Assembly: GCA_008632985.1 (NCBI GenBank)
Contig: QPGO01000002.1
Coordinates: 124,001-188,000, forward strand
DNA: 64,000 nt
From: Psammoneis japonica
Lineage: Eukaryota
Direction: 5' to 3'
Below the pieces are notes generated by a model. The model was not told the origin of the DNA. It was given only the letters and a program-made list of their open reading frames with translations, and ran no database searches. This document shows positions 6,396-64,000 of the stretch, piece after piece; within the stretch, counting starts at the first letter, position 1; the number at the start of each line of letters is the position of its first letter. Made by a program: the position numbers and the translations under genes.

Positions 6396-6400
6396 TGCGA

Positions 6401-16610: not shown

Positions 16611-17696
16611 TTACTCTGCCTTGAGCGCCGCAGCTTCGTCCCACAAATTCTGAAACAGAGCCGTACTGAGATAGCGTTCTCCAAAACTAGGAATCACCAC
16701 AACCACACGCTTCCCCTTGTTTTCAGGACGCTTTGCAACATTAATGGCTGCCGTTACAGCAGCTCCACTGGAAATTCCACAAAAGAGTCCCTCCTCGGTG
16801 GCCAGCGTCCTAGCCATGGCCATGGCGTCTTCACCCGACACTTGAATGACTTCATCCAAAAGGGAAGTATCAGCATTGCCTGGAATGAATCCAGCACCAA
16901 TACCTTGGATCTTGTGTGGGCCGGGCTTGCCACCACTGAGAACAGCCGACTCGGATGGCTCGACCGCTACAATTTGAAGAGCCGGATTGAGTGGCTTCAA
17001 GTACTGTCCACAACCCGTAAGAGTTCCTCCTGTGCCGACTCCACCCACTAAAATATCAACCTCACCATCCGTATCCTCCCAAATTTCAGGACCCGTCGTC
17101 TCCCGGTGGATCTTTGGGTTATCGGGATTGTTAAATTGCTGAAGCAAAAAGCCATCATCTCCGAGGCTACTGACAATTTCTTCGGCCTTGCCAATCGCAC
17201 CGCCCATACCTTTGGGTGCCGGAGTCAAAATGACCTCAGCACCAAACGCCTTGAGCAAGACACGTCGTTCCATGGACATGCTTTCTGGCATGGTGAGGAT
17301 CAGTTTGTATCCCTTAGACGCTGCCACCATGGCGAGACCGATACCCGTATTACCCGACGTGGGCTCCACCAGAGTCGTTTTGCCAGGTTCAATGTCACCG
17401 CGCTTTTCGGCTTCCGTAATCATGGAATAGGCAATACGGTCCTTGACGGAATTGGCGGGATTCGAGGACTCGAGCTTGGCGACAATTTCAGCGACGCAAC
17501 CGTCTGTGACCTTGTTGAGCTTCACGAGTGGAGTGTTGCCAATCAGATCCAACATGGAGTCGGCAATCTTGGACTGGGCGTGTAGTGCACCATGACGAGT
17601 CTTCTTGGCGGATGATGACAGAGAAGGAACAGGCGTAAAGGCACACGACAAGGCCACGCGAGAAGCAGCGACAGCGGCTAAGCAAAGGAACTTCAT
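16611..17696 (-). CDS. cysK: Cysteine synthase A (O-acetylserine thiol-lyase), plastid-targeted
   Basis: SVKDRIA (PLP lysine), [38 protein letters not shown]-terminus [22 protein letters not shown] is a signal peptide plus ASAFAP-type motif. Confidence 0.96.
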
Positions 17697-18249
17697 CGTC
17701 TTACTTCCGGCAAAATGTGTGTGTGCGGTGAAGGGGTGAAGATTGAAGATCTTTCGCACATGGTCGCGCCCCGGCTTGGGAGGGCGGATACCAGTAGCTT
17801 CAGGCTCGCATCATTTGACAGTGTGGAGTTCGCGCAGTGTCGCACCGGTAATAAGAGTACGTAGACATGAACACATAGGAACTTGAGCCTATGATGAACA
17901 AGCCATGTGCAGGGGTTCTGAGTCCTGTTGTACAGTTTGGAAGAGCTAACAATGGAACAAACAATCTCTCTAATGTGCTGTCTATCGCACTCTAGATTGC
18001 CAGTAGAGAGAGATAGAGAGAGAGAGAGAGAGAGCATTCTTCCAGGCAAATGCACACGCGTGGACATGTTTTGGTGCACTTGGGATGATGGAGAGTCCTC
18101 AAAATCCACACAAGAAGGGGAGACAACAAATGTGAGCTTGCGCAAATGGCACTGCCATCAAACGAACCAGAAAAACCGAGTTCCACAATTCAGAAAGCCA
18201 CCTCTCTGGTGGGAGCAAATCGACATGGTCGACATTTCCCGTTTTCATT

Positions 18250-21150: not shown

Positions 21151-21559
21151 AAATTGACCATGGACGCCTGTAGAATCTACACGTTTTTGCACTGAAACTG
21201 TTGTGTTCACACAATTTGTGCAAAAACAGACTTGACTGTTGTCGGGTCAGGCGCATTTTTGCAAATGTGTTGAAGAAAAATACGCCTGATCAGAAAACAG
21301 TCAAATCCATTTTCGCAAAGTTAAAATTCACTAAGGACAGACAGACAGACTTGTCATGGCATTGTCCTGCACAATTTCTACGCAATGACTCTACAGCGCG
21401 AAAGATTGCTGTTGCTCTGACAGAAAACGTGTCTTTCCGCACAGCCCCATAAAAAATGTGAATGACTGTCATGTGCGTGTCAACGGAAAGCACGACATGG
21501 ATTTGTTGCCTCACACAGAGACTTTTGGCGAAGTCGTCAGGAGCAAACGAGCAAACGAA

Positions 21560-22660
21560 AAAGCTCTGTGGCCATGGCGCTGAAGATTGTAGCGGCATTC
21601 CAAGTTTGGATTCGAGATGATTACTTTGATTTAACCCAGTGCCGTTTAAATTGTGTCAAAACCAACTTCGCACTTGACGGACACGATTGCCTTCACGCGA
21701 AAATCCGAAAGACGCAAGCACGCACTGTGCCGCGCACTTTCTTCGTCTCACAATCGCAGTTCTGGCAAGAAAGTGAAGCATCGCATCAACAACATCACCA
21801 TGTTGTCTTCTCTTGTCTTTGTGAACGTCGTGGTCAGCATCAGCCATCGTGACTTGATTGGAGTTGTGATTCATCGCAAGAGCGCGTGCGACTGGCTTCA
21901 TGCCGGTCTTTGGTTCGGATGTTGCACGATGCTTCAAGATCTCAACACAGTTGCCATCACGATGTTCTCGGCGGTTCTCTGCATGGCTTACGATGAGTTC
22001 ATGAAACTCATGGACACCTGGTTGCTCATCAAGTGGCAGAGCTTTCCGAGCGCCACTTTCACTCCCATCTGGAGCAAAGTCCATCTCTTCTTTGTCAAGC
22101 TCAAGTCATTCTCACTGAAGCACATGGAGCTTGCTGTCTTCGCATTGAAGGGAATCATCAAGTGTGTGGACTGGACGCGCGTTGCTTCTTTGTTCAAGCG
22201 TGCCGACAAGACAAGCGCCGCCGTCGTCTTGTTCAACGTCTGCCTGGCTTTCAAGAATTTCGATGTCAGTGTGGCCTCGTGGGATTTCTCTTCCGTCTCA
22301 TGTTGGGAGTGGCACTGGCCTTTCTCATTCACATGCACGTGACGGGATCGCATTTACCATCAACCGAGGACGATCTGTCTGGCCATCGCGACGACCATGT
22401 CAAGAAGCCTTGGAAGGAGCCAACGTCCAAATTCAAGAAGGGACAGTGCGTGTGTCATCGCCATTCAAACAAGACGTGGAGAGCAAAGATTTTAAGGGTC
22501 TGTTTTGACGATGACCTTGACCCGCACTACGACGTGAAATTGGGCGATGCACGCGAGAAGCAGACCACCGAGGACCACCTTTCTGACGAGCTCGGCTCAG
22601 GTCACTTTCAGGTTTTTATTGACATCTTTGACGACGATCCGGATTGCAACTTGTTGTGAG
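21560..22660 (+). pseudogene. Mutated ORF relic ending in a Tudor/SH3-like small domain
   Basis: FKKGQCVCHRHSNKTWRAKILRVCFDDDLDPHYDVKLGDAREKQT resembles the diatom (V)HFDD..PYY.(I/V).L.DGREKQT domain. Almost no Tyr; CpG retained. Confidence 0.5.
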
Positions 22661-23399
22661 GTGCTCAATGGGGGGAAGGGACATCGTCAGTGCAATCTTG
22701 TGACGATTTTTCCAACAAGATGTTCGACAGGGGAGGATCGCCGAGTGTCACATGTGGGTGCGGTGTGACGAGTTTGCATGTTGAATTCTTTGTTCAACTC
22801 GGGCTCTCTTTTTCTGAAAAAAAAAAGGCCTTTGCCATCGAGATCAGAGGGTGACCATCTTTGTACTTTTGAATGAGAGTTTGATTGATTGCATTGGGTC
22901 TTGAATTCAAGCTCGCATTGGATGCACATTCAATTCGAGCTGATTCCGAAACATGTCATTGTTTCCGAACAGAGCATGTGAACGAGAACAAGAGATTCAT
23001 GCGGCACTCAAACTCAAATTCGCACCAGCATGAAGGTGGTGCCTTCTTTTTCGAAAGTAGAGGGGCGGTTGCCAAATGGTCGAGAAAGGAAAGTTGAAGT
23101 CGAGGAAACTGTTCAACACGAGAAATTCTAGCTCCCTCTGCAGGAGACGCTTTGCCATTCTAATTCAGTTGGGCAATCTATTTTGGTTTCATTCAATCAA
23201 GTCTTGTACAATAAAAAGATTAAACAAACAAGAAAATTTAATCAACACTTCTCTGTCTTGTCGCAAACTAGATAAAAAGCACTGTTCGTCATTCGTGTCA
23301 CAGCTGGCACTCGCCATCGATCGATGCGCCACTGCCGGCGGACTGGCATGGCGCCCTTTGGACTAGCTGCGGACTTGTCTCTTGTTCAGTGCAGATTGA

Positions 23400-26300
23400 C
23401 AGCAGCCACACTCTGCTGGCAGTCATCAAGAACAAATGCCAACTAACCATGCAGCATCTCTGGTTGCAGTCAGGCTAAGTAGATCCATTCCAGCCACATG
23501 TCCCCTCAGATCGAAACCACAAGAGAGCAAAAGCCTCAATGCTCGAAACATTTTGTGTGGAAGCTGGAAAGAATGCAGCTTGATTGTGAAACTCAAGGCA
23601 CCAAGAAGGACATTTTCAATGCACTTTGCACGAATCGCCTTGGAGGCGAGAATTGCACCAGTTTCTGGTTGATCCATCACCCAGCGAGCAAGGTCGTGGG
23701 TCTTTTCTGTCACTGTTTTGGCCTGCTTTATGTCTTCTCTTTTGCTGCGGTGGGCCAATGGGGTGAAGATCCTTGAAAAGATGTCAACAAGCATGCCTCC
23801 TCCGTCTTCTTTTTTGATGCTTCCTGGAATGAGTGTGCACGGCAAATTTGCTTGCTTTCATTCTGCATCGAACATGTCCGCCATGAGGGGACGTCTGTTT
23901 CCAAAGCACATTGGAGGGCCTCGCCCACCAATGCAGAAACATGCGAATGCCAAGAGCGCAAAAGGCTCTCCAACCAACAATGGCCGTGTTGGCCTTCCAA
24001 TCGAAAAAGAAATCATCTCCTTCCTCTACGTTGTCGTCATGCTTCATGGCAAGTGAAAAGGCCAAGTGAATCAGATTCGAATGTCATCGCTGAGCCACCG
24101 TGTGGAACAGCAGTTCACCATGCCAACGATCCGTCAACCAATTGAGGTTGGAGATGTCGAAAGACATCAGAACTTTCTCTCGCGTTCCCATGCCAAGAGG
24201 CGCTTCGGGTCCCGCCAACTTGAGAGCTTCCTCCCTTGCACCGTCAACTTCTCCTTCAATCTCCTCCACACTTTTCCCAGACGCAATGAGCATCGCCCGA
24301 TTTCCCCCATGATGCAATCCGTTGTGACTTTCGCACTCCCCTGACACGATCAAGGCGAGCTAGAAGTGGAGCGAAAACGTCCATCTTCCACAGCTGCTCG
24401 GTGATGGGTCAAAGAGCAAGCACAGTTAGCCAAAGGAAGGAGCCCAGGTCTGCTTCTGTTGCAAATGAATCAAACCTGCTTCAACCACATTCGCTGCAAA
24501 ATCCTTCAGTGGCTGAAAACGCAGCGACAACATCCACCCGACCACACTCAATGATGGCAAACATCTTGTCGCGGATCCAACCGATCAGTGCGGTTTCCAT
24601 GATTTTATTGGCATTGCGAAGATGTGCAGAGCCTTCCACAACATCAGAAGCCACATGGCAGATCAACGCATCCGAGCCGATGGCCGTGTCAAGTGAATAA
24701 AAAAAACACGCTGTTTCAAAGGCCTCCACATCGGTTTCATTCGTGCAGTGTCCGAGTGTTCACCCAGAAGCCAAAGACTTCGACAATGACTCTGACAAAA
24801 ACAGCAACCTGCACCACCATCCGTGGCCACAAAGCTCATGAGGGCAAAAACAACCGACTCGGCAACATTGGGGAATCGCAAAGCGCATCCGTGAACGGCC
24901 CGAATCAGCACATGTTTCGGCACAGACCATGCTCTTGGCTTCCGCCGTGGTGGAGTCCTGCTCTTGAGCAGTCTTGGCAACGTAGCGCTTGACCGTCGAT
25001 ACGACATCAACAATGCGAAGGGCGACAATGTCCATGGCAAGATCGAGGACCTTGCAATGACGCGTCTTGATGTCTTCCAATCATTCAAGAACAATGAGCT
25101 TGACATTGCTGTCATTCTTGCCATGTTCCACAAGTTTGCACAAGTGACGGCGGCAACCCGAATTCCGTTCTTGCCAACGTCGTCCATGTTTTGGGCCAAG
25201 AACTGAACGGCCAAATCCTCCGACTGATTGAAAACACGAGAAAAGCACTTCTCCTCACAGCCATGTCTGTTTCGGCTTGGGAGGAATTCGTGCATGAGCT
25301 CTGGTGCATCGGGCATCAAGTGCTCTCCAAACAGCTTGTGAGCAACAAACACGGCAAGCGCCGCATCGGCACTTGGGCACAACCTCCCAGCAAAGCAGAG
25401 AGAAGTTTTGAGCAGATTTACGAAGAGAAACAATCCTGACAAGCATGCACTTGTCCGGCCATCAACAATTAAAGTGCCGCAGCAACGAGAATGCAACACT
25501 TGCCTTTCCATCTCGGATGGCAGCTTCTGCGCCATCATGAATTTCTTCAAGCCTGCCGCATCGACAAAGGCAGAGAAGGCGTCCGCGATTGCCGCAGCTC
25601 TGTCACCACTGCTGCTGTCCGATGATGCCAACAAGGACAAAACAGCATGGCCATGACGGCACTGCCCCGTGGTTGATGCAACACCAAAACCCCAAGCGTG
25701 TGCTTGGGAGACAAAAGCCAGCCATGCACAACAAAGCCCAGCTCAAAAGCTTGGGTGCAGCAGGCAGTTTTGCTTGGTGGTCATTGAAGCACCTCCACAC
25801 CACCAGACTGAGTGACAAGAGAGATGCTCTACAACTGCAAACAAAGCCCATCACCAAACAAGAGCATGTTTGGATTCAGCATTCACAGCTGCTTGCATCA
25901 AAGATGAGGGGCTTTCTCTGAGATTCTTTGAGCAACCCGTGGACATGGTCAAGCCCATTGAGTCCAGAACACCCTGCAGTTGACAAAGGAACTGAGAACA
26001 AAATGATGTCAAGATGCAAGAGTGCAAAGAAACAGGAGGAGGCACACAGAGTGATTGATGACAACAAGTCTCCTCTCTTGCACCTGCCACTTCAATGTTT
26101 CCAGTGGCATTTGGGGCTGCACACCTGTGCAGCATGCTTCCCACTGTGCCACAAAGAAGAAGAAGAATTGCAGAGACATCTGCATGACAATGAAGCAGTG
26201 CACCCCTCTTGTCATGGCAGACAACAAGTGTGCCAAGTTGTGTGTGAACAATCAACCCATGGTCAAGCTGTCAACAAAGAGCACATGATGGTGCTCTCAC

Positions 26301-28300
26301 TCAAATTGCTTGTGTGTCATCAAGCATCAAGGGAATCCACCATGGTTTGTCAAATCATTGCACAGGCTCCTTTGAGAAGAAACACCACCCAAAACAGCAC
26401 ATTCGCAATTGGGGCCACAATGCCATGACACCAAACAAGCCACATTGATTTTTTCTGCATTCTTGGCAAGCACCTCGCTGCACCCATCATGGCAGATGAC
26501 AAAGCACTGCTCATGGTTTGACTTGGCAAAGCACCCACATTTGTGCTGTCCAAGTCAACCAGCTGCATGCAGACAAACACCACAGCCATTGCACAAAACC
26601 AAGCCAGCTGGCAACACAAGAATGGCCCCATTTGTGACAGTTGAGGAGCAACCACAACCACAGCAGCCACACTTGATCCTCCTCAAGAAGCAGAGAAATG
26701 ACCTTGAGACTCCACCCCTGCTGCTGGAGACTTGCAACAAATCATCCAAAGAAGCTTCGCTCCCTTGCAGCTGAAGATGACCACTGCCCATGAGGGTGAA
26801 AAGAGGGGGTGGCCACTGGGGGGCATGGCTTTTTGTTTTTCTTTGTTCTTGTTTGTTTCAGCTGCAAACATGGATGTGACAATTGAAACACACACAATTG
26901 TTGCAATGGTCACATCACTGGTCACATCACAACAAAGATTTCATTTTGTGTGAAAACAGGCATGTGCACACAGCACCTGAGCCTGGAACAAGTCATGCTC
27001 TCTTTTCCAACTGAAGAGTTTCTTGATCCTGCTGAATGGTTTTGCTCACTTTTCAAATTTGAAAAAGAGTGCACAAATCTTCCTTTGAAAATGGCCGCTG
27101 CTGGGTGTGCAAGCAGCAAGAAAGGACTCCACAGTGAACCGCATTGTCCAGGTGCCCATCTACATTCCATGCTGCAAAACAAACTGATGTGCTGGTGCTC
27201 TCTCTTCAATCACTGGAGTGCAATTAAACTGAGCTGCAAACATGCCAATGTTGCACACTCAATCTTTCTCCCCACCTGTTCCTCATCACTGCATTGTTCC
27301 TTGCTTTGCTGTCATGATGATCCAAGAAGTCTTCATTCTTGCCTTGCTCATGAGTGTGGCGGATCTTGTTCAGTTTCTCCAACAAGGGTGGAGTGAGCCA
27401 CTTGTTTGCACTGAACACATGTCAGCTTTTCCTTTCCACCCATGACAGGACAAAGCTTTTCATCCCAAAGAATTTCTCACTTGTCACCCAGAACCTGCAA
27501 ATTGTGTTTTTGAGTGCTTGCCCACAAGCCTTGTGTGTGACTTGAGGCCACTGCAAGATTCTCTTTTCAACCACTTGAGTCAACTCAAGTGACAGCTGGC
27601 ATGGTGCCTGCCCTCCAGTTTTCTCTTTTTTGCGTTCTTCTTTCCATTCTTCTTCTTTCTCTGCTCTTGGCTGTGGCAGCAGCCACCTTTTTCTTTTTCG
27701 GCAAAACAACATCAAATCAACCAACTTGAGTGGGTGAATGTGCCAGTGTCTTTGTTCACATGCCAAGCATGGTTGAGGCTTGCAACCAAGGACCCTTTGC
27801 ATTTTGCCACTCAGTGGAATTTCATGCTTGTCTCTTGGGTTTTTTCTGAACACATTCAGAGTTCCTTGAAAATTTTTGTGTGCTGAGCCATGTGTGCTTG
27901 TGCTTTCCCAGAAATGCCACAAGCTTGTCCCTCAATGCTGCTTGTCTTGGCACGCTTGCTTGCCGCCAACAAAAGAGAAAACAACCACATCATCCTGGCA
28001 TCCAAGAGTGACCATGGCACCCTCATGACATGCCAAAGATGTGGGCGGCCTGTGCAGAACACCTGCAAAAGTCTTGGGCAGCTTCCAGCCACCACTTTCT
28101 TTCTTGACAAGTGAGTCTTGAATGTTGCGCCTGGTGGCAAAGCAATGAAATGAAAGAAGATTGAATGTGTCCTGTTGCCACGGGTGGCACTTCAGAAGGT
28201 TCAAAGATTCCACTGCTTTTGGCACAATGTGAAGAGCGCCTTGCAGTTGGCATGCCGCATCATTTCTTGGGCCACCATGAAAAACTCTCAAGCAACAAAG
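23400..28300. other. Unclassified TpA-depleted sequence (probable decayed transposon/ORF relics)
   Basis: Protein-like fragments on the minus strand at 23.4-25.6 kb (CpG retained). 25.7-28.3 kb lacks both TpA and most CpG. No domain recognised. Confidence 0.4.
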
Positions 28301-29900
28301 GATGATTCAAGAGCCCAGCTTCATCCAGTGGCCAGCTAAAGTGACCAGTTGGCAGATCTGCACTGTCTAGAATCCCTCAGACATGGTCCATGTTTCACCC
28401 AAAACTCCCTCCAACATGCAGTCTGTGTGTCCCCCAAAACAAGCATTTGTGCAAGGCTGTCAGGATGCACACAAGCTGTGTGGACTGTGTGTTGCCATGT
28501 GCAGCAATGAGTTCACAAGCAATGATCTTGATGGTGAAAACTCCACCGTCAAAGTGTGTGAACACTCCAATCCATTCAGGGGCACCAACAACTGAAGACA
28601 TTGGCTTCACTGTCAAGTCTGGCAGCCACTGCCTTGGAGGCTTCATTGCAATTCACCACCCACAGACCACCTGTGCTGGTCTGCAGAAGTCCCCACAACA
28701 CCAGCAGCAGTGTGCCCAGCATGCAGTTGGGGGCTGCGGTGAGTCATTTGCAGAAGCAGAGCATGTGATGCACAGCGCAACTTTCCACCAGCACCACTCA
28801 GCAAGACATTGGCAAACAATGACCCAAGACTGGCCCTGGTTGCCCCTCCAATCAAATTTTTGGGACTGTCCATCCCTTGTCCAACACAGGAGTCTGCAGC
28901 TCACAACTGCAAAGCAAGCCCACTTTAAAGTGCTCCCACGTGATCGACTCACTCTGTGGCCACTCTCAGTTGTGTTCCACAGTTCCCAAGGACACCATGC
29001 ACAAAGTGAAATGAGAAGCAGCCAAACAAACAAGGTCAAAGCGCACAAGGAGACCCTCAAAATGATCCCCAGGACTCCGCCCAACCTCAAGGACAGAGCT
29101 GTCAAGCATGGCACCAAGACTGGAGAGTGGCTGTGAGCGCACCCATCAATGCTGAATGGCACAAAACTTGCGCGCCAAGAGTTCCGTGACACACTCATTT
29201 TGTGGTGTGGCAGCACTCTGCTGGACCTCCCTGAGTTCTGCAATGGGTGCAGCCACAAAATCTCCTTCAACCACACACTTCAGGGCAAGAATGGTGGCCA
29301 AGTCATCTCACATTGGCAAGGCTTGCAAACCTTCCTGCCTGCATGCACAACAAACCTCTTGTCAACCCCGCTGGTTGCATCTGGAGAAGCCCCAGCAACT
29401 CCAACATTTCCCCAGGCAACACCAGTGCCACCTCCAACACAAGTCCAAGGATGGCAATTGTGAAGATCTTCCAGCAATGAGATTTTGGGATGGAAGGACA
29501 GACACAGTGTTGGATGTTTGCATCCCTGATGCGAGCACCAAGTCACACCCATCCAAAACACCAGAGGAGGTCCTGGCAGACCAAAAATGTGAGAAAAAGT
29601 GCAAGCACCTCAAGGAGCCCTGTCTTGAGCAACGCCGTCATTTCACTCCCTTCATTGTGTCATGTGACAGACTGCTTGGCAAGGAAGGCAAGGAGGCGAT
29701 GCTTTGCAAGCTCGCATCAAAGAAATCTGACAAGTGTTGAAAACCATGTTTGGAAGCATTTGGCTGTGTCAAGGCAAGGATGAAGGATGAGCATCACAAT
29801 GGTCTGGGCAACCCATTGTTGCCTCAGGGGATCCTGCACCCACACATCCCAGATCAGCTCCAGGCATCCCCATTGATGGACCCCAATTCAGTCAGACTGC
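28300..29900 (+). mobile_element. Degraded CRE-clade (restriction-like endonuclease) non-LTR retrotransposon, 3' part
   Basis: KTGEWL*AHPSMLNGTKLARQEFRDTLILWCG..LPEFCNGC....FNHTLQGKNGG (zinc knuckle) and DLPAMRFWDGRTDTVLDVCIPDASTKSH...EKKCKHL...CLEQRRHFTPFIVSCDRLLGKE match CRE C-terminal motifs. Confidence 0.85.
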
Positions 29901-30424
29901 ACTCACAAAGACAGAGCATTGTCCTGCCATCTGCAGAGATGGTTGGTGTGAAGCTGACAAGACAACAAAACCACACCAGCGCATTGACGCCGCGGCGCCA
30001 GGTGCCAGAATCCATTCAAATTTTGCACGCACAGATGGCAAAACTTCTTGCGCACGACAGCTGCTCCTTGCACTCATGTGACTGCATCAACTCTGCATGA
30101 CACTTGCTTTTTTGCATGAACACCTTGTGCTCCAACATTCCAGCAGCAACAATTTGGCTCCCACAGAGCAAAAATCCCAAAAGATGAGTTGCTTGATCAA
30201 AACCAGCACAAACCCTGTTGCACAGCACCAACGTTCAAATCATGGATCTGTGTGATCAGCTTCCTCCCAATCCAGCACAGAAACAGCATGGCTTGATGCT
30301 GCATTTGTTTTGCAGGCAAAAATCGAGTTTTGGGGTTGCAAGTCTGCATTTGCCAAGACACCAGGAGGAGCTGAACTTGTCAGGCCCCAGGATTTCATCC
30401 TTGAGTCTCATCATCTGGTGCAAT

Positions 30425-30534
30425 TGCAACGTGCAGCTGCCAATGAGAGTCAATGTATCACGGCGACGTGTTGCAGCCTTTAAATGTCACAAAGGGCGTG
30501 ACAAAAACAACCTTTTGTCTGCGTGCATGCTGCA
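30425..30534. repeat. 110-bp direct repeat flanking the YR element; partner at 37131-37240
   Basis: Ungapped alignment with 16 differences, all transitions. Confidence 0.93.
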
Positions 30535-30635
30535 TTGTGAATTCACAGCGGAGTGGTTCATCGCAACCATTGGGCAGGAGGCCAGGGGTTCGAAACCCTG
30601 AGTGGGAGTTGTCTGAAGCAACGTTGATCACTGTC

Positions 30636-30774
30636 GCGGCTCACGCTGCCCGTCTTGTTCCTTCTCCTGCGGCTCTCTAGTGCCAACTAGAGATCTTCCA
30701 ATGATGGGCTGGAATGGCTTTGCCAGCGGATGCGCAAGCCTCATTCCCAAAACCCAAGCTGGAACGGCAGGGCC
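30636..30774. repeat. Split direct repeat B (139 bp); partner at 30991-31129
   Basis: GCGGCTCACGC...GGAACGGCAGGGCC present at both positions. Confidence 0.95.
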
Positions 30775-30794
30775 AGAGGGCGGGAGAGGTGGGA

Positions 30795-30991
30795 GCGTTA
30801 AAAACTGTCTAGCGGCTTCTTGCTCTTTGTTGCTCTTCAGGAAAATGAGTGAAGCAAACGAGAAAAGAGCAGAAAAAACCGTTGTTTGCTCGCCAAGTTC
30901 GCGCAAGCACGTTCAAATTTGAATTCAAACGGTTTGCATGACCCAACGGTCAAATGTGGGTCATTTGCCTCGTCACACTGCACAAGGTGGG
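30795..30991. repeat. Split direct repeat A (197 bp); partner at 36809-37005
   Basis: GCGTTAAAAACTGTCTAGCGG...CACTGCACAAGGTGGG present at both positions. Confidence 0.95.
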
Positions 30992-33900
30992 CGGCTCACG
31001 CCGCCCGTCTTGTTCCTTCTCCTGCGGCTCTCTAGTGCTGACTAGAGATCTTCTGATGATGGGCTCGAATGGCTTCACTGGCGGATGCGCAAGCCTCATT
31101 CCCAAAACCCAAGCTGGAACGGCAGGGCCTTCCAGCGCCACCTGCAGTGCCGTGCACTTTTGGGAGGGTGGGTGGGTTGAGGCTGGAGGGCTGTGGTGAT
31201 CAGGCGTCTTGAGGATTTTGAGGGACGTCAGCATCAGGGTGGAGGACGAAGTCGCCACCGGCGAGCATGTCGCGAGCGAAGTTGCGCATGACTGGTTCTG
31301 CTTGCAAGTGCAGGTGTCGCAACATTTCGTCGGATCGCCAGCGGCCTAAGAGCCGAATGAGATCGGTGTCGATGCGGGCACAAAGGAGGGCCATTGCTCC
31401 GGCGGCACGAAGACACCGAGCGGCAATGTCTCGGGTGGTGAAGCCGAGATTAGCCGGACTGAGAGCAGCGACAGCATTGCGCAGCATGCTGGTGATGTCG
31501 GCCGGGGACACACGACGCCAGGTGTTGTTTTGAAAGCAAACACCAAGGGGTGTGTCAGGGAGCACACTGTGGGTGCGCAAGTGTTGGACACGGCGGATGA
31601 GGGCTTGAACCGGGCACAGGTGGGGGTGACCGGAAAGACCAAGCCCTTAGAACTTCGCCTCGCACTCCATTTTTCTGGGTGGCAAAGGTGAGAGTGGCAA
31701 AGTTTGCTGTGTTAAGGTGTGCAAGTGGAGCTTGCATGGCATCAAGGTGAGCACCACCAGACACAAGCCGGACATCGGCGAGACGAAAGGGAGTGGTGTC
31801 TGATGGTGTTGCGGTGTGCTCGCCAGGCCGTGACAGGAAGAAAAAGGCAAGCACAATCATTTCAGCAATGGCTTGTGTGCCCGGGGCATTGCTGATGGCT
31901 GCGGCGGTCATGATCCATTGCAGCACTGCAATTGGGACCGGTTTTACGCGGTCTGGGGGTGGATCCTGCTTCTTGTAAAAACGGACTTGCCGGGTGAGGC
32001 AGAAATCCATTGTGCCTTGGGATGTGTGGCGTGGGTCCGGGGACCCCATTGCAGCGAACGTTTGGCCAACCGAACGTGCGGCATCTTCAGCGGTTCTTCC
32101 ACGGACGGGATTGCCCATCGGCGCGAGGACTCCTGTGCGGTGTCGGTGCAAGAAGACTTGGAGGAAGACAACAGGGTCGTCAACGTCTTCGAGGAGTGGG
32201 TCGATGGCCAAAGAGGAGCAGAACTCTCGCCATTTGTCCCAATGGGCACTGGTGGCGGAGGCTCTGGAAGAGGCAACGCCATGCTGGACTGCGTGTTGAG
32301 CAGCATTGAGATCACGTATGAACTCAGTTCTGGTGGAGGCGTCCAGAGACGCCAGGAGAGTTTCTGCAGACAGTGCAAATTAAAGTGACGCAAAAATTCA
32401 CGGTTGGACAAAGACTGCAGTCGTGAGGCATCGTCAGCGGCAGTGTTGAGGTGTCCAGGCAGGCAGTCATGCAACCCCAAGTGGCGATGGTAGCGTTGGT
32501 GGCAGGATTGGCATCGAAGCAACCGGGAGGCGGGTTTGACGGCAGTGGTGGCACCTTTACGTTGCCAGCACATGGTGCCTGAATTGTCGGTGCGTGAAAG
32601 ACTGGTGCATTCACGGATGTCAAAACAGTCGGCGGCGCCGAAGGACTGAATGACACTGCCGGCAAGTTCCAGGTCTGTGTTGGTGATGGGACCGTGCGGG
32701 TTGGAGAAAGTGGAGAGTTGACTGCTGACACTTTTGGGAAAGGGCAGTCGCCACACTGCAGGACCCGCATCTCTCTGTTGACAGCGTCTGCAATTGCCGA
32801 AATGGAGAGTGGCTGCTCTGGGTGCTGTGGCACTGGTTGGCAGGAGGACGCCGCCTGCGCCGTGACCTGCAGCATCATGACAGCCGGTGAGTGTTGGTTT
32901 TGGTGGAACCAATTCTTGAATGCGAACGGGTCGGGCGTCTAGGGTAGATTCTAGATCCCGAAAATCATCTAGTGCGCAGTGCGCATTGGCGGAGATCCGG
33001 ACCCGTGAGTCCGGAGTGGTGTGTCGGAGATTTTCTTGTAGCACTGAGAAGAGGCCCCGGGAGCCGGGGATGGCAATGCTCAGAGAGCGCAGCTCTCCCA
33101 GTGATTTCTGACAGTCGGAGACGGCAGCACATTTATGTGTGTGGGGGGAAATCCTGGTGCAGCATTGTGTGAAGTCGGGCACACCGTCGGGGCGTGAGCC
33201 GGATGGTCACAGCGCGAGCATCTATGAGCCAACCCAGGACTTCTTTCTGCGTGGACCATGTGGCATCACCCTGGCGGAGCTTCTTGACGGAGACGGGCTC
33301 TTTGCGGGTGGCTGGGTCATGTGCATCGAGTGGGCGGAAGACGTCATCGAGAACATGCAGCATCACACGGTGAACGTTGCGCCGGGCTTGTTTCGAACCT
33401 TGCGCAGCGCCGAGGAAGTTGTCTACATAGATGTCGATGTATTGCAAGCGGCGGCGCCGACGCGGTCAGAGGTGTGGGTCGGGCGCATTAGGAATGGGCA
33501 CGGCCTGGGAAGCTGCGGCCACTTGTGGTGGTTGGTGCTTCGGCGGGCGGCTTTCTAAAAGCGATTCCAGCGGATGTGGCGGTGCTTGGACGTTGCGCAC
33601 CAAATCCAAATTGGCGACATCGGCAACAGTCTCCATTGCTGTGCAGAACAAAGGCGGGGAGTTGGCCCAGCCCATGGGCAAGCGTGTTGGGATTGCAACC
33701 AGTGATGGTTCGCCCGATTGGTTCGGGAACACTGCACCAAGTGTAGGAGCCTGTTCTGGCGCAACTTGCATGTGGCAACAGCCATCAGCCAAGTCGATCT
33801 TCATGGGACAGACCATGCCTTTTCTGGGATCGGCGAGCAGGATGCGGCGTAGAAGGCGGTTGAAGGCACGTCCAAATTGCATGGCTTCCATTGCAGCGTT

Positions 33901-36900
33901 GGGTTGCGTGGAGGGATTTAGCCCACAACAGGTGCAGTCCACAATGGGGCGGGGACGTCGACCATGTTGAGGCACCACGCCAATTGGGCTTGGGCGAAGA
34001 CCGGGGGTGTGACGCACTTCCTCATAAGGGATGACAACCCAAAAGCCTTTCTCGACCATGTCGGCCATGTCTTGGCGCAGAAACTCGATGTGTTCGTAGG
34101 CGGATTTGTGTGGACCCCTGGCGACACTTGCGTCTAGCTCAGCATGCGTCCATGGTGCATCGGCGGCGGTGATGGGGGCACCTCGGTGCTTGCAATTGCT
34201 CAGCAGTCGGTGTGCTGGGTGTTGCTTGACTCGGTGGAGTGGACCCCAATCGCCTCTGCCGCTGCGATGACGCAACAAGTGACTGAGACCTCTGTGACGC
34301 AGTGACGCAGCATCAGTTTGTATGTGCTCACCTGGTTTGTCATTGTAGATTGCGGCAGCAACATCCTGTCCACGGGCAGTGGGGCGGGTGCGCTGCCTCT
34401 TGAAATTCTCCACAGTCGGGGGTTGTGGACGTGATGGCGCATCGACCATCGCGGATGAAGGCTCTTGGCTCCAAGTCCCCGAACTTGGGCCATTGCCGAA
34501 GACCTGTTCGGTCTTCCAGTTCTCCTCACCCCAGGTGAGAAGGGTGGTCTGTTCAGCGTCTGTGTGGTCATTGCGATGATCACAGGATGAGCCACAGTTG
34601 GTGTTACATTGCCCTTTGTAATGGCAGGGAAAGCAACGGGGACGACCTTGGGCATCTTTGGGAAGTTCGATGTTGTCCCTTGCGCATCGGTTTTTGACAT
34701 CGCGTGACCTGACGTTGGGGCGGTCACGAAGGGTGGCGAAGCGGTCATCATAAGAAGGGTTGTGGACGCGCTGTTGCTCCCCATGGCTTGACTGATGGGG
34801 GCCCTGTTGGCAGGCTGGTGTTGAGTTGCCGGGGCCGGTGCGGCTCCCAGTGCAGAACTGGGGCTGGCAGCTTGCATGTTAGCGGGCAGGTGCGGGCGCC
34901 AGCACATGATTCCTTTTGCCGCTTCAAACACAACGTTCAATGGTGAGAATGGAAGCGGGTGAAGGGAGGCTTCTTAAGCCTTGAACCAATGGCGGACTTC
35001 AATCTGCGCGCAGCGTTGAAAATCCACGGGAAGGGTTGGGTGCCAAGTGGCCTGTGTTGCCAACTCGTTGGCACACCGGTCCATGTCTTGACGTTGATGG
35101 GTGAGCCATTGGACAACTGGATGATTGGCTCCAAGTGAGGCAGAAAGCACCAGGCGGCATCCATCGTAGGACTGCTGAGCGGCTTGCATTGTCGTCGCCA
35201 CGAGCGCCTTGTCTGGTGCTTCCAGGACCTGCGTGTCTTGGAGGGACGGGGCCGCAGCGCCGCCATGAATGTGCATGTACATGGCCTTACGATGAGCGAT
35301 CTGCTCGGCACTGTCTGGCACAGCAATCCCAAACTGGAATGGAGTGATGCCTTGGGTTGGCTCGTCTTGATTGTGACCAGCAAAATCCAACTGTACGAGC
35401 TTGGTGACAAGGCCAACCGTGACTGGCACGTCAAAATGAACGGCCATGGCCTGGCGTTGCTCGTCAATTGCATTTTGGACGACTGCCAGGCGGCCTGTCT
35501 TAGGCGCTGCGGCAAGGGCGGCCCACATGGGCGGTGGTGCTGTCTCGTTGAGGGCGTGGCACCAATTCACAAGCTTGGTGACACCAAAAGGTCCCCAGAA
35601 CTCATTGGGAACCTTGCCCCGGGCAGCCGCTTGTTGCCGTGCAGTGGCATCAAGTCGGAGTTGTCATTGTTCAGTGGTGAGCTCTTCAATGGCCTGCACA
35701 ACTGGCTGGAAGTGCTGAGCGGTGGGTGGTGCCCGACCCAGTCTCCCGGGGATGTCCCGCTCCACCTTGGCATCAAAAAATTGAATGAGGGCTTCGTTGG
35801 GGGGCGTGTCATGGCAGGCCAAGGTCGCGCCACAACAGATGCCACTTGGTTGTGGGCAGTGGCACAGCAGGCGACGCGCAAGAAGTCGAGTGGTGGTCGG
35901 ATGGCAGCCACCTTGTCAGCTGCCGTGGCGGCGCCGTGCACGTGCTGGTGGGCTTGTTTAGGATACAAAGGGTGTGCCAACAAGAGCGGCACGAACTCAA
36001 ATGGCACGTGCATTGCGTGTCGTGTCTGTGCGACTTCCGAGTTTGGTGCATTCTCAGCCAGATGCGGATGCAGGCCTTCCGCATCATTGGTGACATGCTC
36101 CAGGAGTGCGGCGTGGGTCGGCACCCTAGTCCCCTGCTGTGCTAAATTGAATGAGTCGTTCCTGAATTCGACCAGGGTAAACTGTCCACGGGTTAGGTCA
36201 CCCGCCATTGCGTGCGTCTCACCATCCCAAGGTTCGGCAGGTCCAACCACGGTCGTCGGATAAGTGGTGACGCGGTGCAGGACTTGGATCTGTCCTTCGT
36301 CCGCTGCGCCGTCCTCTCGGCAGTGCATGATAACGGCCATCGGCTGATCGTGACTTGACGCCGCTGCAACTCGCCCATGGAGTGCTCCGGGGTTGCATCT
36401 CGAAGGTCCCTGAACCGGAACCGCGAAATCTAGCATCGACTCGTCGCACACCCCCCGGTGTGGGTCGTCAGCGGCTGTGAGGTGGAAATCCCGATGCGTC
36501 GCAATGACCGGCGGCGCCGCCGGTGCGGCTCGTGCACCCGGTGGTGGTGGTGGCATGACGGCTCCTGCTGCTTGCGGTGCCACCGGAGGCACCGGGACTT
36601 GTGGAGGAGGGGGTGGTGGAGCGTTTTGGGCTGCCGTGGCGGCTGCTGCAGCTCCTCTTTGCGGTGGAGCAGGGTCGTTGGCATTTTGGGCGTTCTGGGC
36701 CCCTTGTCCTGCGTTTTGCTGCTGTTGCGCGTCCACAATGGACTTGCCAAAGGTTCTTCCTGCAAACAACAAGGTGCTGCGGCGGAGGCATCCTGCGCCA
36801 CGTCGATGGCGTTAAAAACTGTCTAGCGGCTTCTTGCTCTTTGTTGCTCTTTGGAAGAATGAGTGAAGCAAACAAGAAAAGAGCAGAAAAAACCGTCATT

Positions 36901-39339
36901 TGCTTGCCAAGTTCGCGCAAGCACGTTCAAATTTGAATTCAAACGGTTTGTATGACCCAACGGTCAAATGTGGGTCATTTGCCTCGTCACACTGCACAAG
37001 GTGGGAACGCGCAAAACTCTGTGCAGTTCTGCACGTTCCTTCGTGCGTGCCCACACTGTTCCGCCAAAACCGTGCAGTGTCAGCACACGTTGGTAAAGAG
37101 CCGTGTGGACGCGTGACACATGGGGAGGAGTGCAATGCACAGCTGCCAACAAGAGTTGATGCATCACGGCGACGTGTCACAGCCTTCAAATGTCACAAAG
37201 GGCGTGACAAAAATGACCTTTTGCCTGCACGCATGCTGCACAATGATGTGTTGTGTCAAAAGGTTGATCCAAGTGCTGTGCAGTCCAGCCCAATCAGCAG
37301 CATGACAATCAGAGTGGACCGCAAAGCCTTTTTTCCTGGAGCCCACTCCACCAAAGCTGTCTTGTGACAGCACACTTTCGGGCCAGGTTGCAGTTCTCCA
37401 AATGTCTTTGGCAAAGGATGCAACAGCTCCTCACCTGCATCTGCAGTGATGAGCACAGCAATGCGGGGTGAGGATGCCAGACAAGAAGGCTTGATCCCCG
37501 TGAATGCCAATTCTGCCAAAACCAATCTTGGCTGGAGTTCTTGGAGCCACCACAACACGCAATCCACTTTTGATCTGTTCCACAAAAGCACCAAAATGAG
37601 ACAGATTGCAGCTCAAATGAGAGGAGAAAGGCATGCCAGTGTGTTGGTGATGCAAAAAGGATGACTCAATCCCATGCTGATGTTTCTTTCCTTAAAAAAA
37701 AGCCGCACACCTTGTGCCACTTTGTGCAGAACTTGCAACATGACGTCCACCAAAAAAAGCTTGCTGCAACAATGACTTGTTGGCACAAAGGGATGTTCTT
37801 GAAAGCAGCAGTCAGGATGTGGCAGCAACACAACAAAAGTGCACAAGCCATTTGGAGCTCAAAACATCCAAATTGCAGCTCGCAGGCACTGTCCATGTGT
37901 GACTCCCCCTTGGCATCATCGTCACAAAAAATGTCCTCCTGCTCCTCTTGTTCCAACAATGTTGCTTTGGTTGATGCCTGTTGCACAGTCTGTCGGGTTT
38001 TTGCTGTGACAGTGCAGAATCTTTGCATGTGCAGCCTGTTGTCACTGAATGTCATCATCTCACATGGTGCAGAGTGAAGGACGACAACAGGGGCATGTTT
38101 GAGAGTCACGTGCTTTGCCCCGCATTTGCGCGAGAATTGGAGAACACTTCAGGAATCTCTGCACTCTGTTTTCTGCACTGCAGTGGCTGCCTTCTGCCAA
38201 AAGACACAACAGAAAGAATGCAATTGAGGCTTTGGGATGGATGGATGGATTTCACAACCACAACGTTGCGTGCATTGATGCTCTTGTCTTGCATGCTGTC
38301 TTTTTTACCGTGTCGTGTGTCGGCAACCTGTGAGGTGTGAGGTCCGGTGCTTTTTAAAAAGCGTTGGACCTCGCGAAAAAAGCAAACATCACTCGCCATT
38401 CGCCATGACGATAGTGGCGCCGAATCGCCGCAGCGCTTTGCAATCGTTTTGTATTCTCCAATAGCGCTAACAGACAACACGATTCTTTTGTCTAAGAACA
38501 CTATGGCCGCTTATAAATTGTCACAAAAAGTCAAAATCTGTCGCAGGTAGCGGTCTTTCACGTGTGTCTCAAACGCTCAAAAAACGGTATGTTGTCTCTT
38601 ACGCACTCGCCCGGTGCACTCGATTGTGATTGTACTACACATGTTGACATTGTCACACACGTTGATATTTTTCACTGTTTGTTACTTGATACTTTTTGGC
38701 AGAGTAGCCAAGCTCGGGATCCGTGCTGTGCTATGATCTCTGCCGCTTGACTCAACTCACACATGACTATCATTGCTGTTCTTACTTGTAGTAGCAATTT
38801 ATGGCTGTACAATCAGAACGATACTTTTTCTTCTTCTTTGCTTCAAGTTACGACTCCTTACACGTTGGATGCGTCCGAAGCCGAGGAGCAACGTCCACTC
38901 ATTTTTGAAGTATTGGCACCCGTCTTTTAACTGCTCTTCTCGGAATTTAAGTAAGTTGGCCACCAGGAGAAACTCGTATCCTTCGTTGGTGTGGACTGGA
39001 CGGATCAATGGTCTCACTCTATCCATACAATTCTCCCTTTGTTTGCTCTCTTGCCATTTTTCCCTACCTAGACGGCGGCGCCGTTCTGCCAAGAGGCTTT
39101 GAAAGACGAAGACGCCGTGCTAGCAGCGGTTTGGTCAAGTCCATTGCAACGTTGATGGAAATCGTACTGGACGATTGCGCATGTGCCCTGATTCAGTTTG
39201 TCGCTCGGTACGCTCTTTTTTATCATCTAATCTTTGTAAGTCGAGCCATCAAATTCATCAGCAGCAAGCTATCGTCCAAACCCAAAAAAGGAAACTGCTT
39301 TGGGCTGAAGCATGTACTACTGGTGCTAAAGCGATCCAG

Positions 39340-44264: not shown

Positions 44265-47200
44265 TCAAAGGGGGGGAGTGATAAAGCCAAAGAACTCGAG
44301 TTCGTTGATCTGATGACTGCCACCCCCTGTCTCTGTCACATGGTAACGAATGAGTTTGTACGCCGCGCTCGGAATGGACAAGATAACCTGTACCACCTGG
44401 TTGCGTTCTGAAAATAAAGCTCCTTCCTCGGTAGCATTGTAACAGAAGATATCAACGTAGGTCACACCGTCATTGGATCCTTCAATACAAAATTTAGTTG
44501 GATCCCGGGTTGGCACATCGTTGCCGGAAGTTATGGTGAAGTTTGTAATCGTAGCGCTTGTAGCAAACTCAACTTGAACCCATTGTGGCGGTCCGTTGCA
44601 GCACCATTTCGAAGTCGTGGGACCAACATGGTTGTTGAAAACGTTAAACGCGTTCTCTCCACCAAAGCCTTCCTTGCTGCTCGCCGTTACGTCGAGCCAA
44701 CCCCATGATGGGTCACTTTCTCCACCCACTGTAGCATTACAAGGTTCAGCAGGGCAAGTCAAATCGTTGCCAACAAGGGCATCTGTGCCAAGGGCTGTCA
44801 AACCACTGCCAAGAACCGTAATGGTGGCTGGCGGGGCAGAGGGGACAGTCGATGGTGAGGCCGAAGGCGTGGCGCTGGGGTAAGATGATGGCAAAGCTGA
44901 AGGCGACGCACTGGGAGACACGCTGGGCAATTCAGAGGGAGCGTGACTTGGCGCATCTGAGGGGACGTTGCTTGGAGAAACCGATGGAGCATCACTTGGA
45001 ATGTCAGACGGCGCTGCGGAGGGAACTGACGAGGGTTCCGATGACGGCATGTCACTTGGTGCAAATGAGGGCGATCCCGAAGGAACGGATGAAGGAGCAG
45101 ACGAGGGAACAGATGATGGCGCATCACTTGGTGCCGTCGAAGGGTGCTCTGAAGGAACATCACTTGGCGGCTTTGAGGGTGTTTCCGAAGGCTCACTGCT
45201 TGGGACAACGCTTGGTGTGTTGGATGGGAGATCACTGGGAGCTACAGATGGAATGTCACTTGGCAAATCAAAAGGCGCACCAGAAGGTACATCACTTGGG
45301 CCTGCAGATGGTGAGGAAGATGGCACAAAACTCGGGACAGATGATGGGTTTGTCGACGGAACATTGCTGGGTGCCAAACTCGGAAGAGCCGATGGGTTCG
45401 TTGATGGCAACGTAGACGGTTGAAGAGAAGGCACATCACTCGGCTGAGCGGATGGACTAGTCGACGGGGCATTACTGGGAGCCGCACTTGGGGTTGTCGA
45501 AGGCGTAGTTGAGGGGGCAGTCGAAGGCGATAAGGACGGCATCCTGCTCGGTTCAGAAGATGGAGTCGTCGTTGGCTGATCTGATGGACTAATCGACGGG
45601 ATATGACTGGGAGCAGCACTCGGGACACCTGATGGGTTTGTTGAAGGCAACGTAGACGGTTGAAGAGAAGGCACATCACTGGGCTGAACGGAGGGGCTAG
45701 TCGACGGGATGGCACTGGGTGACGAACTAGGGCCAATCGAAGGCACTATAGACGGGTGCAGAGAAGGCACATCACTCGGCTGAGCGGATGGACTAGACGA
45801 AGGGACATCACTGGGAGCCGCACTTGGCATTGCCGACGGAGTAGTAGATGGCACCGTTGATGGGGTGAGAGACGGGCCATCACTCGGTTCTGCCGAAGGT
45901 CTTGTAGAAGGTACATCACTGGGTGCTTCACTTGGGACCGCAGATGGAGTAGCCGAGGGCACCGTTGAAGGGGTGAGAGACGGGACATCACTTGGTTCCG
46001 CAGATGGTATTGTTGAAGGCATGTCACTAGGATCAGCACTCGGCATTGCAGATGGAGTAGTAGAGGGCACCGTCGAGGGTGTCGTAGATGGAATATCACT
46101 CGGTTCTGCCGATGGTGTTGTAGAAGGTACATCACTGGGAGCTGCACTTGGCATTGCCGACGGAGTAGCAGAGGGCACCTTTGATGGGGTGAGAGACGGG
46201 CCATCACTCGGTTCTGCCGAAGGTCTTGTAGAAGGTAAACCACTCGGCGCTTCACTTGGGATCGCAGATGGAGTAGCTGAGGGTGCCGTTGAAGGGGTTA
46301 GAGACGGGACATCACTTGGTTCCGCAGATGGCATTGTTGAAGGCATGTCACTAGGATCAGCACTCGGCATTGCAGATGGAGCAGCAGAGGGCACCGACGA
46401 AGGGGTGACAGACGGGGTGTCACTTGGCTCCACAGATGGTCTTGTTGAAGGCACGTTACTGGGAGCTGAACTCGGGACTGCCGACGGAGAAGTAGATGGA
46501 ATATCACTCGGTTCTGTCGATGGTGTTGTAGAAGGTACATCACTCGGAGCTGCACTTGGCATTGCCGACGGAGTAGCAGAGGGCACCGTCGAAGGGGTGA
46601 GAGACGGGCCATCGCTCGGTTCTGCCGAAGGCACGTCACTCGGCACTGCGCTGGGGAATGTAGATGGAACTGCAGAAGGAACTGCTGAAGGCCCGAGAGA
46701 CGGGACATCGCTTGGTTGTTCAGAAGGTGTTGTAGAAGGTACATCACTGGGAGCGGAACTCGGGACTGCAGACGGAGTAGTAGAGGGCACCGTCGAAGGT
46801 GTCGAAGACGGAACATCACTCGGCTCTATCGAAGGTGTTGTAGAAGGTATGTCACTCGGGGCTGAACTCGGCATTGCCGACGGAGTAGTAGATGGCACTT
46901 TTGATGGGGTGACAGACGGGCCATCACTCGGTTCTGCCGAAGGTCTCGTAGAAGGTATATCACTCGGCGCTTCACTTGGGATCGCAGATGGAGTAGCTGA
47001 GGGCGCCGTTGAAGGGGTGAGAGACGGGACATCGCTTGGTTCTCCAGATGGTATTGTTGAAGGCATGTCACTAGGAACAGCACTCGGCATTGCAGATGGA
47101 GCAGCAGAGGGCACCGACGAAGGGGTGACAGACGGGGTGTCACTTGGCTCCACAGATGGTCTTGTTGAAGGCACGTCACTGGGGGCGGAACTCGGGACTG

Positions 47201-60479: not shown

Positions 60480-60909
60480 TGTCGATTGATCCACACGTGA
60501 TGCCTAGGATACGCAATGTGTTCACATGCACAAAACAACCACAAGACCTTGGCTGTAGGATGCGAACAATCGTGAACAAGCAGACACGGCACGAGCCATA
60601 AGGCACGTTCTCTCGGGGTTTATTGCTCACGTGGTGGCAGAGAAGCGTGCTGTTGTTTGTTGTTTCGGTTGAGAACGAGTTTTCTTCCGAGTTGAGGATT
60701 TCGAAATGTATGTGCAATTCGCAATAAGTCTTGATAGTCAGGTAGAAACGTACTGAACGGAAATGGCGGGAGAATAAATACAACTTTTATTCTTTAATAT
60801 TATATAATTTATGTATCTATTTAATCTTGTATAAAATAATGCAATCCTCTATCGGCATCCAATTCGTCGGATGATTCGCCTTCTAAAAAGTCAAAATTTT
60901 GAAGGTTCA

Positions 60910-63900: not shown

Positions 63901-64000
63901 ACCCCCAGTGCTGCAGGAAGAGAAGAGCACTGGGAACAGCAAAAAGAGCAGCTTAGATTTCAACTTGCCAAGGCATGGTCTTTGCATCTCATGAAGTGAG
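60910..64000. other. TpA- and CpG-depleted block, unclassified decayed repeat
   Basis: Only a handful of TpA in 3 kb. Motif ACCTG..TGGCTCATT.TGT....TCAAGAA recurs at ~62130, ~63455 and ~63560. Confidence 0.5.

Follow-up and report, generated by a model that had tools for sequence, protein, structure and literature searches.

The stretch analysed here, hereafter the window, comprises 64,000 nucleotides of the diatom Psammoneis japonica (GenBank assembly GCA_008632985.1, contig QPGO01000002.1, positions 124,001 to 188,000 of the forward strand; the coordinates used below are those of the window). About 30 kb of it, in six tracts, is almost devoid of the dinucleotide TA, and one of these tracts contains a dead retrotransposon at 30636–37004. 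The repeats within and around this element differ from each other almost exclusively by transitions at pyrimidine–purine (YpR) steps, most often as an exchange of TG for CA. The observations described below point to a process that converts TpA to TpG or CpA in transposon-derived DNA. The features of the element, including its open reading frames (ORFs), are as follows.

30636–37004, minus strand: tyrosine-recombinase retrotransposon, assigned to the DIRS order, with split direct repeats; a dead copy of 6369 bases whose repeat-inferred ends coincide with the empty-site joint
36809–37005, minus strand: split repeat X1, forming the 5′ end of the element; it is 197 bases long and 95% identical to 30795–30991
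30795–30991, minus strand: split repeat X2, partner of 36809–37005
30991–31129, minus strand: split repeat Y1, next to X2; it is 139 bases long and 93% identical to 30636–30774
30636–30774, minus strand: split repeat Y2 (3′ end of the element), partner of 30991–31129
31215–32379, minus strand: tyrosine recombinase gene, with a frameshift near 31646 and two invariant Tyr now His
31932–34485, minus strand: pol (reverse transcriptase) frame, with one frameshift near 33146 and an in-frame TGA at 33466–33468
35033–36538, minus strand: upstream ORFs common to relatives and aligned to ORFs of related loci, gag-like by position only

In the orientation of the element, the order is 37005–36809, the internal part, 31129–30991, 30991–30795 and 30774–30636, which is the split-direct-repeat layout of Ngaro/PAT-like elements (repeat 1, internal part, repeat 2, repeat 1, repeat 2). 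ORFs of relatives align over 36538–31217. In tblastn searches, pol aligned at 52–60% identity with homologues of 850–920 residues from diatoms and marine metagenomes; 211 homologues of the reverse transcriptase were found at 40–63% identity, many of them with PF00078, and RVT_1 was matched by P0121 at E 2.7e-6, the window copy itself reaching only E 0.12. The recombinase region aligns with intact ORFs of relatives of 385–457 residues. By sequence these are only weakly recognizable: 4 of 13 relatives match the Pfam family Phage_integrase, at E 0.026 at best, and a profile built from the recombinase ORFs gave no match in a sequence search of the PDB. For a structure model of one relative's recombinase ORF (pLDDT 79), the best match was Cre recombinase (E 3e-7); TM values of 0.47–0.55 were obtained with Cre, Tn1549 integrase, Xer and lambda integrase, and the atlas neighbours of the model carry NDC10_II, DUF3435 and Phage_integrase. 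The upstream ORFs at 35033–36538 matched no Pfam family. A reverse transcriptase, a Cre-like recombinase, the split direct repeats and the absence of a target duplication are common to this element and the Ngaro/PAT-like elements of the order DIRS; different are the absence of any recognized methyltransferase-like domain in the element and the origin of its relatives, which come from diatoms and marine metagenomes. These features place the element in the DIRS order, with a tyrosine recombinase, recognized in part from the structure model, instead of a DDE integrase. Both catalytic proteins of the copy are dead, and both in-frame stops are TGA. Read depth indicates about 10–20 copies of the element. 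In the window, tblastn with pol homologues found no second pol, and protein searches found no copy at 90% or more, the best match being at 63%.

Contigs built from reads of the public run X1 were compared with the window; two further runs come from the same sample. Four contigs of run X1 and one of run X2 join position 30635 directly to 37005, skipping 6369 bases, and at most 1 base is shared at this joint, so that there is no target-site duplication. The empty-site joint matches the ends derived from the repeats, which are therefore the true ends of the element, and the target itself is repeated. Because the contigs join 30635 to 37005, the pair at 30425 and 37131, with which the preliminary description had opened, lies outside the element and must be assigned to the host repeat into which it inserted.

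30425–30534, plus strand: flanking repeat copy 1, within a high-copy host repeat, as judged from depth and a shared loose end
37131–37240, plus strand: flanking repeat copy 2, ~337 bases from copy 1 in the empty site

Contig depth is 40464 over 30005–30671 and 22560 over 36675–37341, as against ~55 for single-copy contigs; a loose end at 30434 is common to 10 contigs, and the empty insertion site has a depth of 1547 (about 26 copies). These depth bins indicate that some part of the host repeat near the insertion site occurs hundreds of times. With transition-tolerant scoring, the homology of the flanking repeat reaches 30434–30577 versus 37140–37283, and a transition-tolerant search of the surroundings gave no further copies. 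The recombinase element may insert site-specifically into the host repeat. A stretch beside the insertion site resembles a tRNA T-arm, but neither ARAGORN nor Rfam gave any match around it.

The three repeat pairs were compared without gaps over 446 aligned bases in total. They differ by 34 transitions and a single transversion, and 22 of these 35 differences make up eleven adjacent TG/CA swaps. The host-repeat pair (30425–30534 versus 37131–37240) has 16 differences, transitions only: five swaps (30432–3, 30444–5, 30451–2, 30472–3 and 30508–9), two TA/CA sites (30456 and 30481), three CG/TG or CG/CA sites (30430, 30523 and 30524) and one difference outside a YpR step (30518). Between 30795–30991 and 36809–37005 there are nine transitions and no transversions, including two swaps and a CA/TA site at 30937, while 30636–30774 and 30991–31129 show ten differences (nine transitions, one transversion) with four swaps. 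Outside YpR steps, only 3 of 336 bases differ between the element's own repeats. Summed over the 446 bases, the YpR steps read CG/CG 20 times, CG/TG 4, CG/CA 2, TG/CA 11, TA/CA 3, TA/TG 0 and TA/TA 4. The four TA kept in both copies stand in CTAG (three) and TTAA (one), the contexts of best survival throughout the tracts. On recounting, the numbers of the preliminary description hold, namely that all 16 differences of the host-repeat pair are transitions and that 10 of its 11 variable sites are YpR swaps (five TG/CA and two TA/CA among them). Its further statement that the split repeats agree is likewise borne out by the CA/TA site at 30937 and by the four swaps in what it called repeat B (30636/30991). 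The premise that split repeats are alike at the start also finds support, since the long pairs of relatives are 96–100% identical in 12 of 13 cases and 89% identical in one. A palindrome lies within the pair 30636/30991, at 30675–30692 and 31030–31047, and consists of two inverted 6-base arms separated by a 6-base spacer. Each arm contains CTAG, the TAs of which are kept in both copies, and the spacer carries a CA/TG swap; the palindrome could be a recombinase core site or merely a protected context.

The number of swaps is far beyond chance. When the same numbers of transitions were placed at random in 20000 trials, swaps averaged 0.67 with a maximum of 5, and no trial reached the observed 11. 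A genic inverted duplication in the same window (6395–8241 versus 55589–44071) shows 28 transitions, 36 transversions and no TG/CA swap, as compared with the 34:1 ratio of the repeat pairs (Fisher test, 2e-8). Among relatives, 13 long direct-repeat pairs from 12 related metagenome elements, covering 3738 bases, have 31 transitions and 12 transversions, again with no swap; in these pairs TA is retained in both copies 137 times and changed 6 times. Because the genic duplication has no TG/CA swap, the pattern of the repeats is local, and neither the genome as a whole nor the way of aligning accounts for it. This duplication is partial, comprising the ends of giant repeat-protein genes in three blocks of 96%, 99% and 90% identity; its spectrum is ordinary, and it lies right beside the TA-erased tract 1–5968.

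The direction of change can be read from tyrosine, which alone among the amino acids is encoded only by codons with TA. At the 21 positions of the whole element where 80 related metagenome loci have a consensus Tyr, the window copy has His 8 times, Cys 5, Phe 3, Tyr once and other residues 4 times, so that 13 of the 21 are Cys or His. In a stricter set, restricted to positions covered by at least 15 related loci and with the same residue in at least 80% of them, only 1 of 11 Tyr positions is unchanged (Cys as TGY at four, His as CAY at four, Phe and Ala at one each; thus Cys or His at 8 of the 11 best conserved), as against 422 of 558 for other residues (Fisher test, 8e-6). Comparison of pol with 168–211 database homologues gave a similar picture: the 11 positions with Tyr in at least half of these homologues hold Cys 6 times, His twice, Tyr twice and Arg once. 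In the recombinase, the codons at 31316 and 31818 are CAC where 50 of 50 and 56 of 56 relatives, respectively, have Tyr. One of these substitutions directly follows a conserved Gly-Arg-Trp motif, the site at which the catalytic Tyr of such recombinases sits. Changes of TAY to TGY and of TAY to CAY correspond to A to G and T to C at TpA, and the codons, taken as a sequence comparison, show the direction to be from TA to TG or CA. Leu to Pro or Ser, Ile to Met and Val to Ala are also present in the copy, and Arg has become Cys or His at 7 of 60 positions; the latter changes mark a slower decay of CpG. The relatives indicate the native state: the ratio of observed to expected TA is 0.39–0.85 in all 80 related metagenome elements versus 0.21 in the window copy.

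The element is embedded in a much larger phenomenon. The six tracts lie at 1–5968, 17984–21178, 21623–23161, 23445–38452, 56955–57908 and 60851–64000, and can be grouped as follows.

1–5968: old TA- and CG-erased tract, with TA 0–4, CG 4–12 and TG and CA ~55–65 each per 500 bases
17984–38452: TA-poor tract complex with the element, interrupted by TA-richer gaps at 21178–21623 and 23161–23445
56955–57908: short TA- and CG-poor island between genes
60851–64000: old TA- and CG-erased tract that runs off the window

Counts of TA are 0–5 per 500 bases in the tracts versus 10–50 in genic DNA, and over kilobases of the erased tracts the observed/expected ratio is 0.01–0.05. The edges are sharp to within tens of bases, and genes a few bases away are untouched. 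Because TAA and TAG are gone from the tracts, long open frames occur there in all six frames. In the complex 17984–38452, CG is kept at 21623–25500 and in the element and is lost at 25501–30424. Per kb, genic DNA has TA 37.4, CG 59.5, TG 75.2 and CA 68.6 (sum 240.7), tracts that keep CG have TA 8.0, CG 62.3, TG 94.3 and CA 82.3 (sum 246.9), and tracts that lose CG have TA 2.5, CG 14.9, TG 109.2 and CA 115.6 (sum 242.2). The sum of YpR steps is thus constant: the gain in TG plus CA equals the loss of TA plus CG and, in CG-keeping tracts, the loss of TA. From the comparison of these two kinds of tract, TA loss runs ahead of CG loss, and within tracts residual TA tracks residual CG (Spearman 0.70, 57 bins). 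A short, TA-poor repeat with one copy inside a tract (5493–5634) and one outside (8378–8242) has CG outside where TG (3) or CA (3) stands inside. AA, judged by eye, is not depleted. The TA that survives in tracts tentatively favours TTAA, CTAG and TTAG/CTAA, with none left in ATAT; the genic baseline of this flank rule is biased by the avoidance of stop triplets. Survival by flank class tentatively fits independent hits on the two strands, with a pyrimidine 3′ of the A favoured. On the plus strand, some old tracts hold ~1.4 times as many CA as TG, as at 26001–27000 and 28501–30500 (e.g. 146 versus 105 and 273 versus 185), while over all tracts the two are balanced; the starting composition or a strand preference of the process could be the cause.

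The TA-free sequence is reproduced by contigs of run X1 at depth ~51–60, of which one of 2114 bases differs at 6 letters, one of 791 bases at 1 and one of 674 bases at 0; the first of these, at depth 59, covers the erased tract 26579–28691. This argues against an artefact of consensus or polishing.

The TG/CA swaps could in principle descend from either TA or CG. If only CG were concerned, the 20 CG/CG sites and 6 single changes of the three pairs would mean that each copy had lost a fraction of 0.13 of its CpG, and 0.22 swaps would be expected as compared with the 11 observed (Poisson, 1.5e-15). With TpA as the ancestor, the proportion of swaps to single TA changes (11 to 3) corresponds to the loss of ~0.94 of susceptible TpA in each copy, and Tyr codons, with 8 of 10 lost, give a similar value. 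Because CpG decay alone predicts only ~0.2 swaps, most swaps are best read as sites of ancestral TpA at which both copies were hit on opposite strands, a conclusion drawn from rates and not from reconstruction site by site. The preliminary description had already suggested that an ancestral TA or CG was hit on opposite strands in the two copies, and both the direction of change at Tyr codons and the erasure of TA with a matching gain in TG plus CA lend support to it; the counter-case that it raised, with CG at all swap sites and ordinary C to T changes, fails on the number of swaps. A two-step path, through a CpG or TpA intermediate within one copy, was considered as well and rejected, as it would need about one-fifth of CA/TG sites to be mutated where the background is ~1%.

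We therefore propose, with a probability of about 0.7, that transposon-derived tracts of diatom nuclear DNA undergo a local and very fast conversion of TpA to TpG or CpA, with a slower loss of CpG alongside. The process would change A:T to G:C at TpA, on either strand, within silenced mobile DNA, and the accompanying conversion of CpG to TpG or CpA would be as expected for methylated repeats, so that TA and CG would both drain into TG and CA. In the 6.4-kb element, most susceptible TpA would already have been hit, the duplicated ends usually in both copies, and wherever the hits fell on opposite strands of the same ancestral TpA, the copies would now read TG versus CA. Since 0.8–0.94 of susceptible TpA were lost per copy, as against 3 of 336 differences outside YpR steps, the rate at TpA would be some hundreds of times the background, with wide error. 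The process probably acts on chromosomal DNA in place, appears to be still progressive and is presumably enzymatic. The CpG loss is expected to be a separate decay of methylated repeats, while it is possible that one shared process underlies the loss of both dinucleotides. A candidate enzyme would be an ADAT/TadA-like deaminase that is targeted to silenced DNA and attacks A where it follows T, a mechanism put forward for Bigelowiella natans. According to the preprint of Mettrop et al. (bioRxiv 10.64898/2026.01.13.699255, 2026), giant-virus and virophage DNA integrated in the genome of this alga mutated ~1000-fold faster in mutation-accumulation lines; every change was A to G or T to C, and every one lay at TpA. 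The authors suggest that an ADAT2-like adenine deaminase works on DNA, and they note the preference of ADAR and ADAT/TadA enzymes for A with a U on its 5′ side.

Several observations weigh against this proposal. The implied ancestral TpA number ~29 in 446 bases, where 17 would be expected from the repeats of relatives (38 per kb), and most of the excess falls in the host-repeat pair. The flanks of five of the 11 swaps are of the pyrimidine-…-purine class, in which TA survives best in the tracts; double hits on TA would not be expected there, although the conflict is uncertain given the biased baseline. The site 30430–30433 reads CGTG and TGCA in the pair and CACA in other copies, and is most simply derived from CG. 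Outside the recombinase element, no transposon protein was recognized in the tracts, where 68 ORFs matched no Pfam family apart from one sub-threshold match at chance level; a mobile origin is proven for the recombinase element only and elsewhere indicated by copy number and composition. Finally, the confirming run X1 may be the assembly's own source.

It is tempting to go further and to speculate that diatoms carry a dedicated defence, guided by chromatin or homology, that deaminates adenine in TpA on both strands of silenced mobile DNA, that it is the same system as in Bigelowiella, and that it constitutes an ancient counterpart of fungal repeat-induced point mutation (RIP) shared by stramenopiles and rhizarians. 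Such a defence would kill elements by erasing Tyr and other TA-containing codons. In its boldest form, the enzyme would act on paired repeat copies, a single event hitting the same TpA on opposite strands; this, if true, would explain both the excess of swaps over single changes (11 to 3) and the swaps in resistant flanks. We regard this extension as rather unlikely.

Alternatively, the TpA changes may have been made on arrival, on RNA or single-stranded cDNA intermediates in the manner of APOBEC3G, so that the split repeats would have differed from integration onwards. The element is a retrotransposon, in whose RNA each split repeat would be present twice, so that editing before integration could make the two differ; neither catalytic protein of the copy is functional, and DIRS elements use single-stranded cDNA intermediates (PMC7192593). 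However, TG and CA are equally common in old tracts (109 versus 116 per kb), so that both strands would need editing, and the fall of residual TA with residual CG inside tracts fits continued chromosomal decay. Furthermore, the host repeat and single-copy old tracts are equally erased, and the signature in B. natans (bioRxiv 10.64898/2026.01.13.699255) arose in integrated DNA during culture. Editing on arrival is therefore unlikely.

A further possibility is that the process acts in place and on the thymine, either through a mismatch-specific thymine glycosylase removing T in TpA or TpG of methylated DNA or through a modified T mispairing with G, in both cases with T to C as the outcome. The data cannot tell A to G on one strand from T to C on the other, and the tracts, given their CpG decay, are probably methylated. 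Moreover, a bias of TpG to CpG has been ascribed tentatively to human TDG excising T aberrantly (PMC4041421). Against this, nothing in the window speaks specifically for a thymine route, and conversion of TpG to CpG would replenish CG, which instead falls to 15 per kb. We consider this explanation improbable.

The decay of methylated CpG alone, with all swaps derived from CG and the TA/CA sites from CA, would account for the CpG loss in older tracts, which is real, for the 6 single CG/TG and CG/CA changes in the repeats and for the site 30430–30433; but besides predicting a fiftieth or so of the swaps in repeats that retain 20 intact CG/CG sites, it cannot remove TA, which was lost before CG, nor turn Tyr codons without CG into Cys or His, and it is very improbable as the sole cause. 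Base modifications can cause systematic transition errors on some sequencing platforms, and tracts might always have been TA-poor, but such an artefact or native composition is scarcely credible in view of the depth of 51–60 at which contigs reproduce the sequence, the normal TA of relatives, and the replacement of conserved Tyr including the recombinase nucleophile, which cannot be native to a working element.

To our knowledge, among genome defences that work by mutating mobile DNA within the chromosome, only RIP of fungi has long been well established. The process proposed here resembles RIP as a mutational defence in which transitions in a dinucleotide context affect mobile DNA, both repeat copies are hit and genes are inactivated. 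In RIP, however, C changes to T mainly at CpA and creates TpA, whereas here TpA is destroyed (2.5–8 per kb) and CpA and TpG are created. RIP is triggered by duplication. Here the element has about 10–20 copies by depth, and the erased tract 26579–28691 is now single-copy (depth 59, at a likeness of at least 82%) but may once have had more copies, so that a dependence on duplication is possible. With methylated CpG decay the present process shares the conversion of CG to TG or CA restricted to repeats, here in older tracts, but such decay leaves the TA loss, the replacement of Tyr by Cys or His and the number of swaps unexplained. Hyperediting by ADAR or APOBEC enzymes similarly yields clusters of deaminase-made transitions in selfish elements; it concerns RNA or single-stranded intermediates and usually one strand, whereas the changes in the tracts fall on the two strands alike and become more pronounced the older a tract is.

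The closest parallel is B. natans, where TpA likewise changes to TpG or CpA on either strand and where only discrete stretches of foreign DNA are affected, in an otherwise ordinary genome. The two cases differ in lineage (a chlorarachniophyte, i.e. a rhizarian, versus a diatom, i.e. a stramenopile), in target (insertions of giant viruses and virophages versus a retrotransposon and repeat tracts) and in extent, the preprint giving a Rho of 0.45 for the viral region as compared with a TA observed/expected of 0.01–0.05 here. In addition, the rate was measured in lines there and is deduced here, and CpG loss accompanies the process only here, 'CpG' and diatoms being absent from the preprint's text (10.64898/2026.01.13.699255). 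No report of TpA erasure in diatoms was found in full-text searches, which do not extend to subscription journals, and Maumus et al. 2009 (PMC2806351) contains none of the mutation or dinucleotide terms sought. We accordingly file the diatom case as a further example of a recently described kind, in another major lineage, with transposons as targets and far closer to completion.

A TpA-specific process changing A:T to G:C was first reported in 2026, in one rhizarian alga, and what appears to be its end-state is now seen in a diatom, which suggests that it is widespread in a major group of marine primary producers. The erasure leaves kilobases almost without TA, covers nearly half of the 64-kb window and has killed both enzymes of the retrotransposon. 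A TA observed/expected below 0.1 with TG and CA near 1.9 may serve as a genome-wide marker, and the search for the enzyme becomes testable in a group of organisms with genetic tools. In practice, such tracts give false long ORFs in all frames and defeat standard repeat and homology searches, and dating of insertions from repeat divergence would be badly wrong.

Some features of the remaining window deserve mention. A cysteine synthase gene with best named matches in diatoms lies at 16611–17759. The stretch 11111–11983, within a GC-rich ORF, is also TA-poor (6 TA per 500 bases); it has full CG and no enrichment in TG or CA, and looks compositional and apart from the tract phenomenon. An imperfect palindrome of 366 bases (78% self-complementary) occupies AT-rich, TA-rich intergenic DNA at 14519–14884. 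On the minus strand, 44265–47729 and 47690–55906 are intron-free ORFs of 1154 and 2738 residues with disordered PT repeats; the shorter ends in an F5/8 type C (discoidin) domain, and a strong GC skew extends across both.

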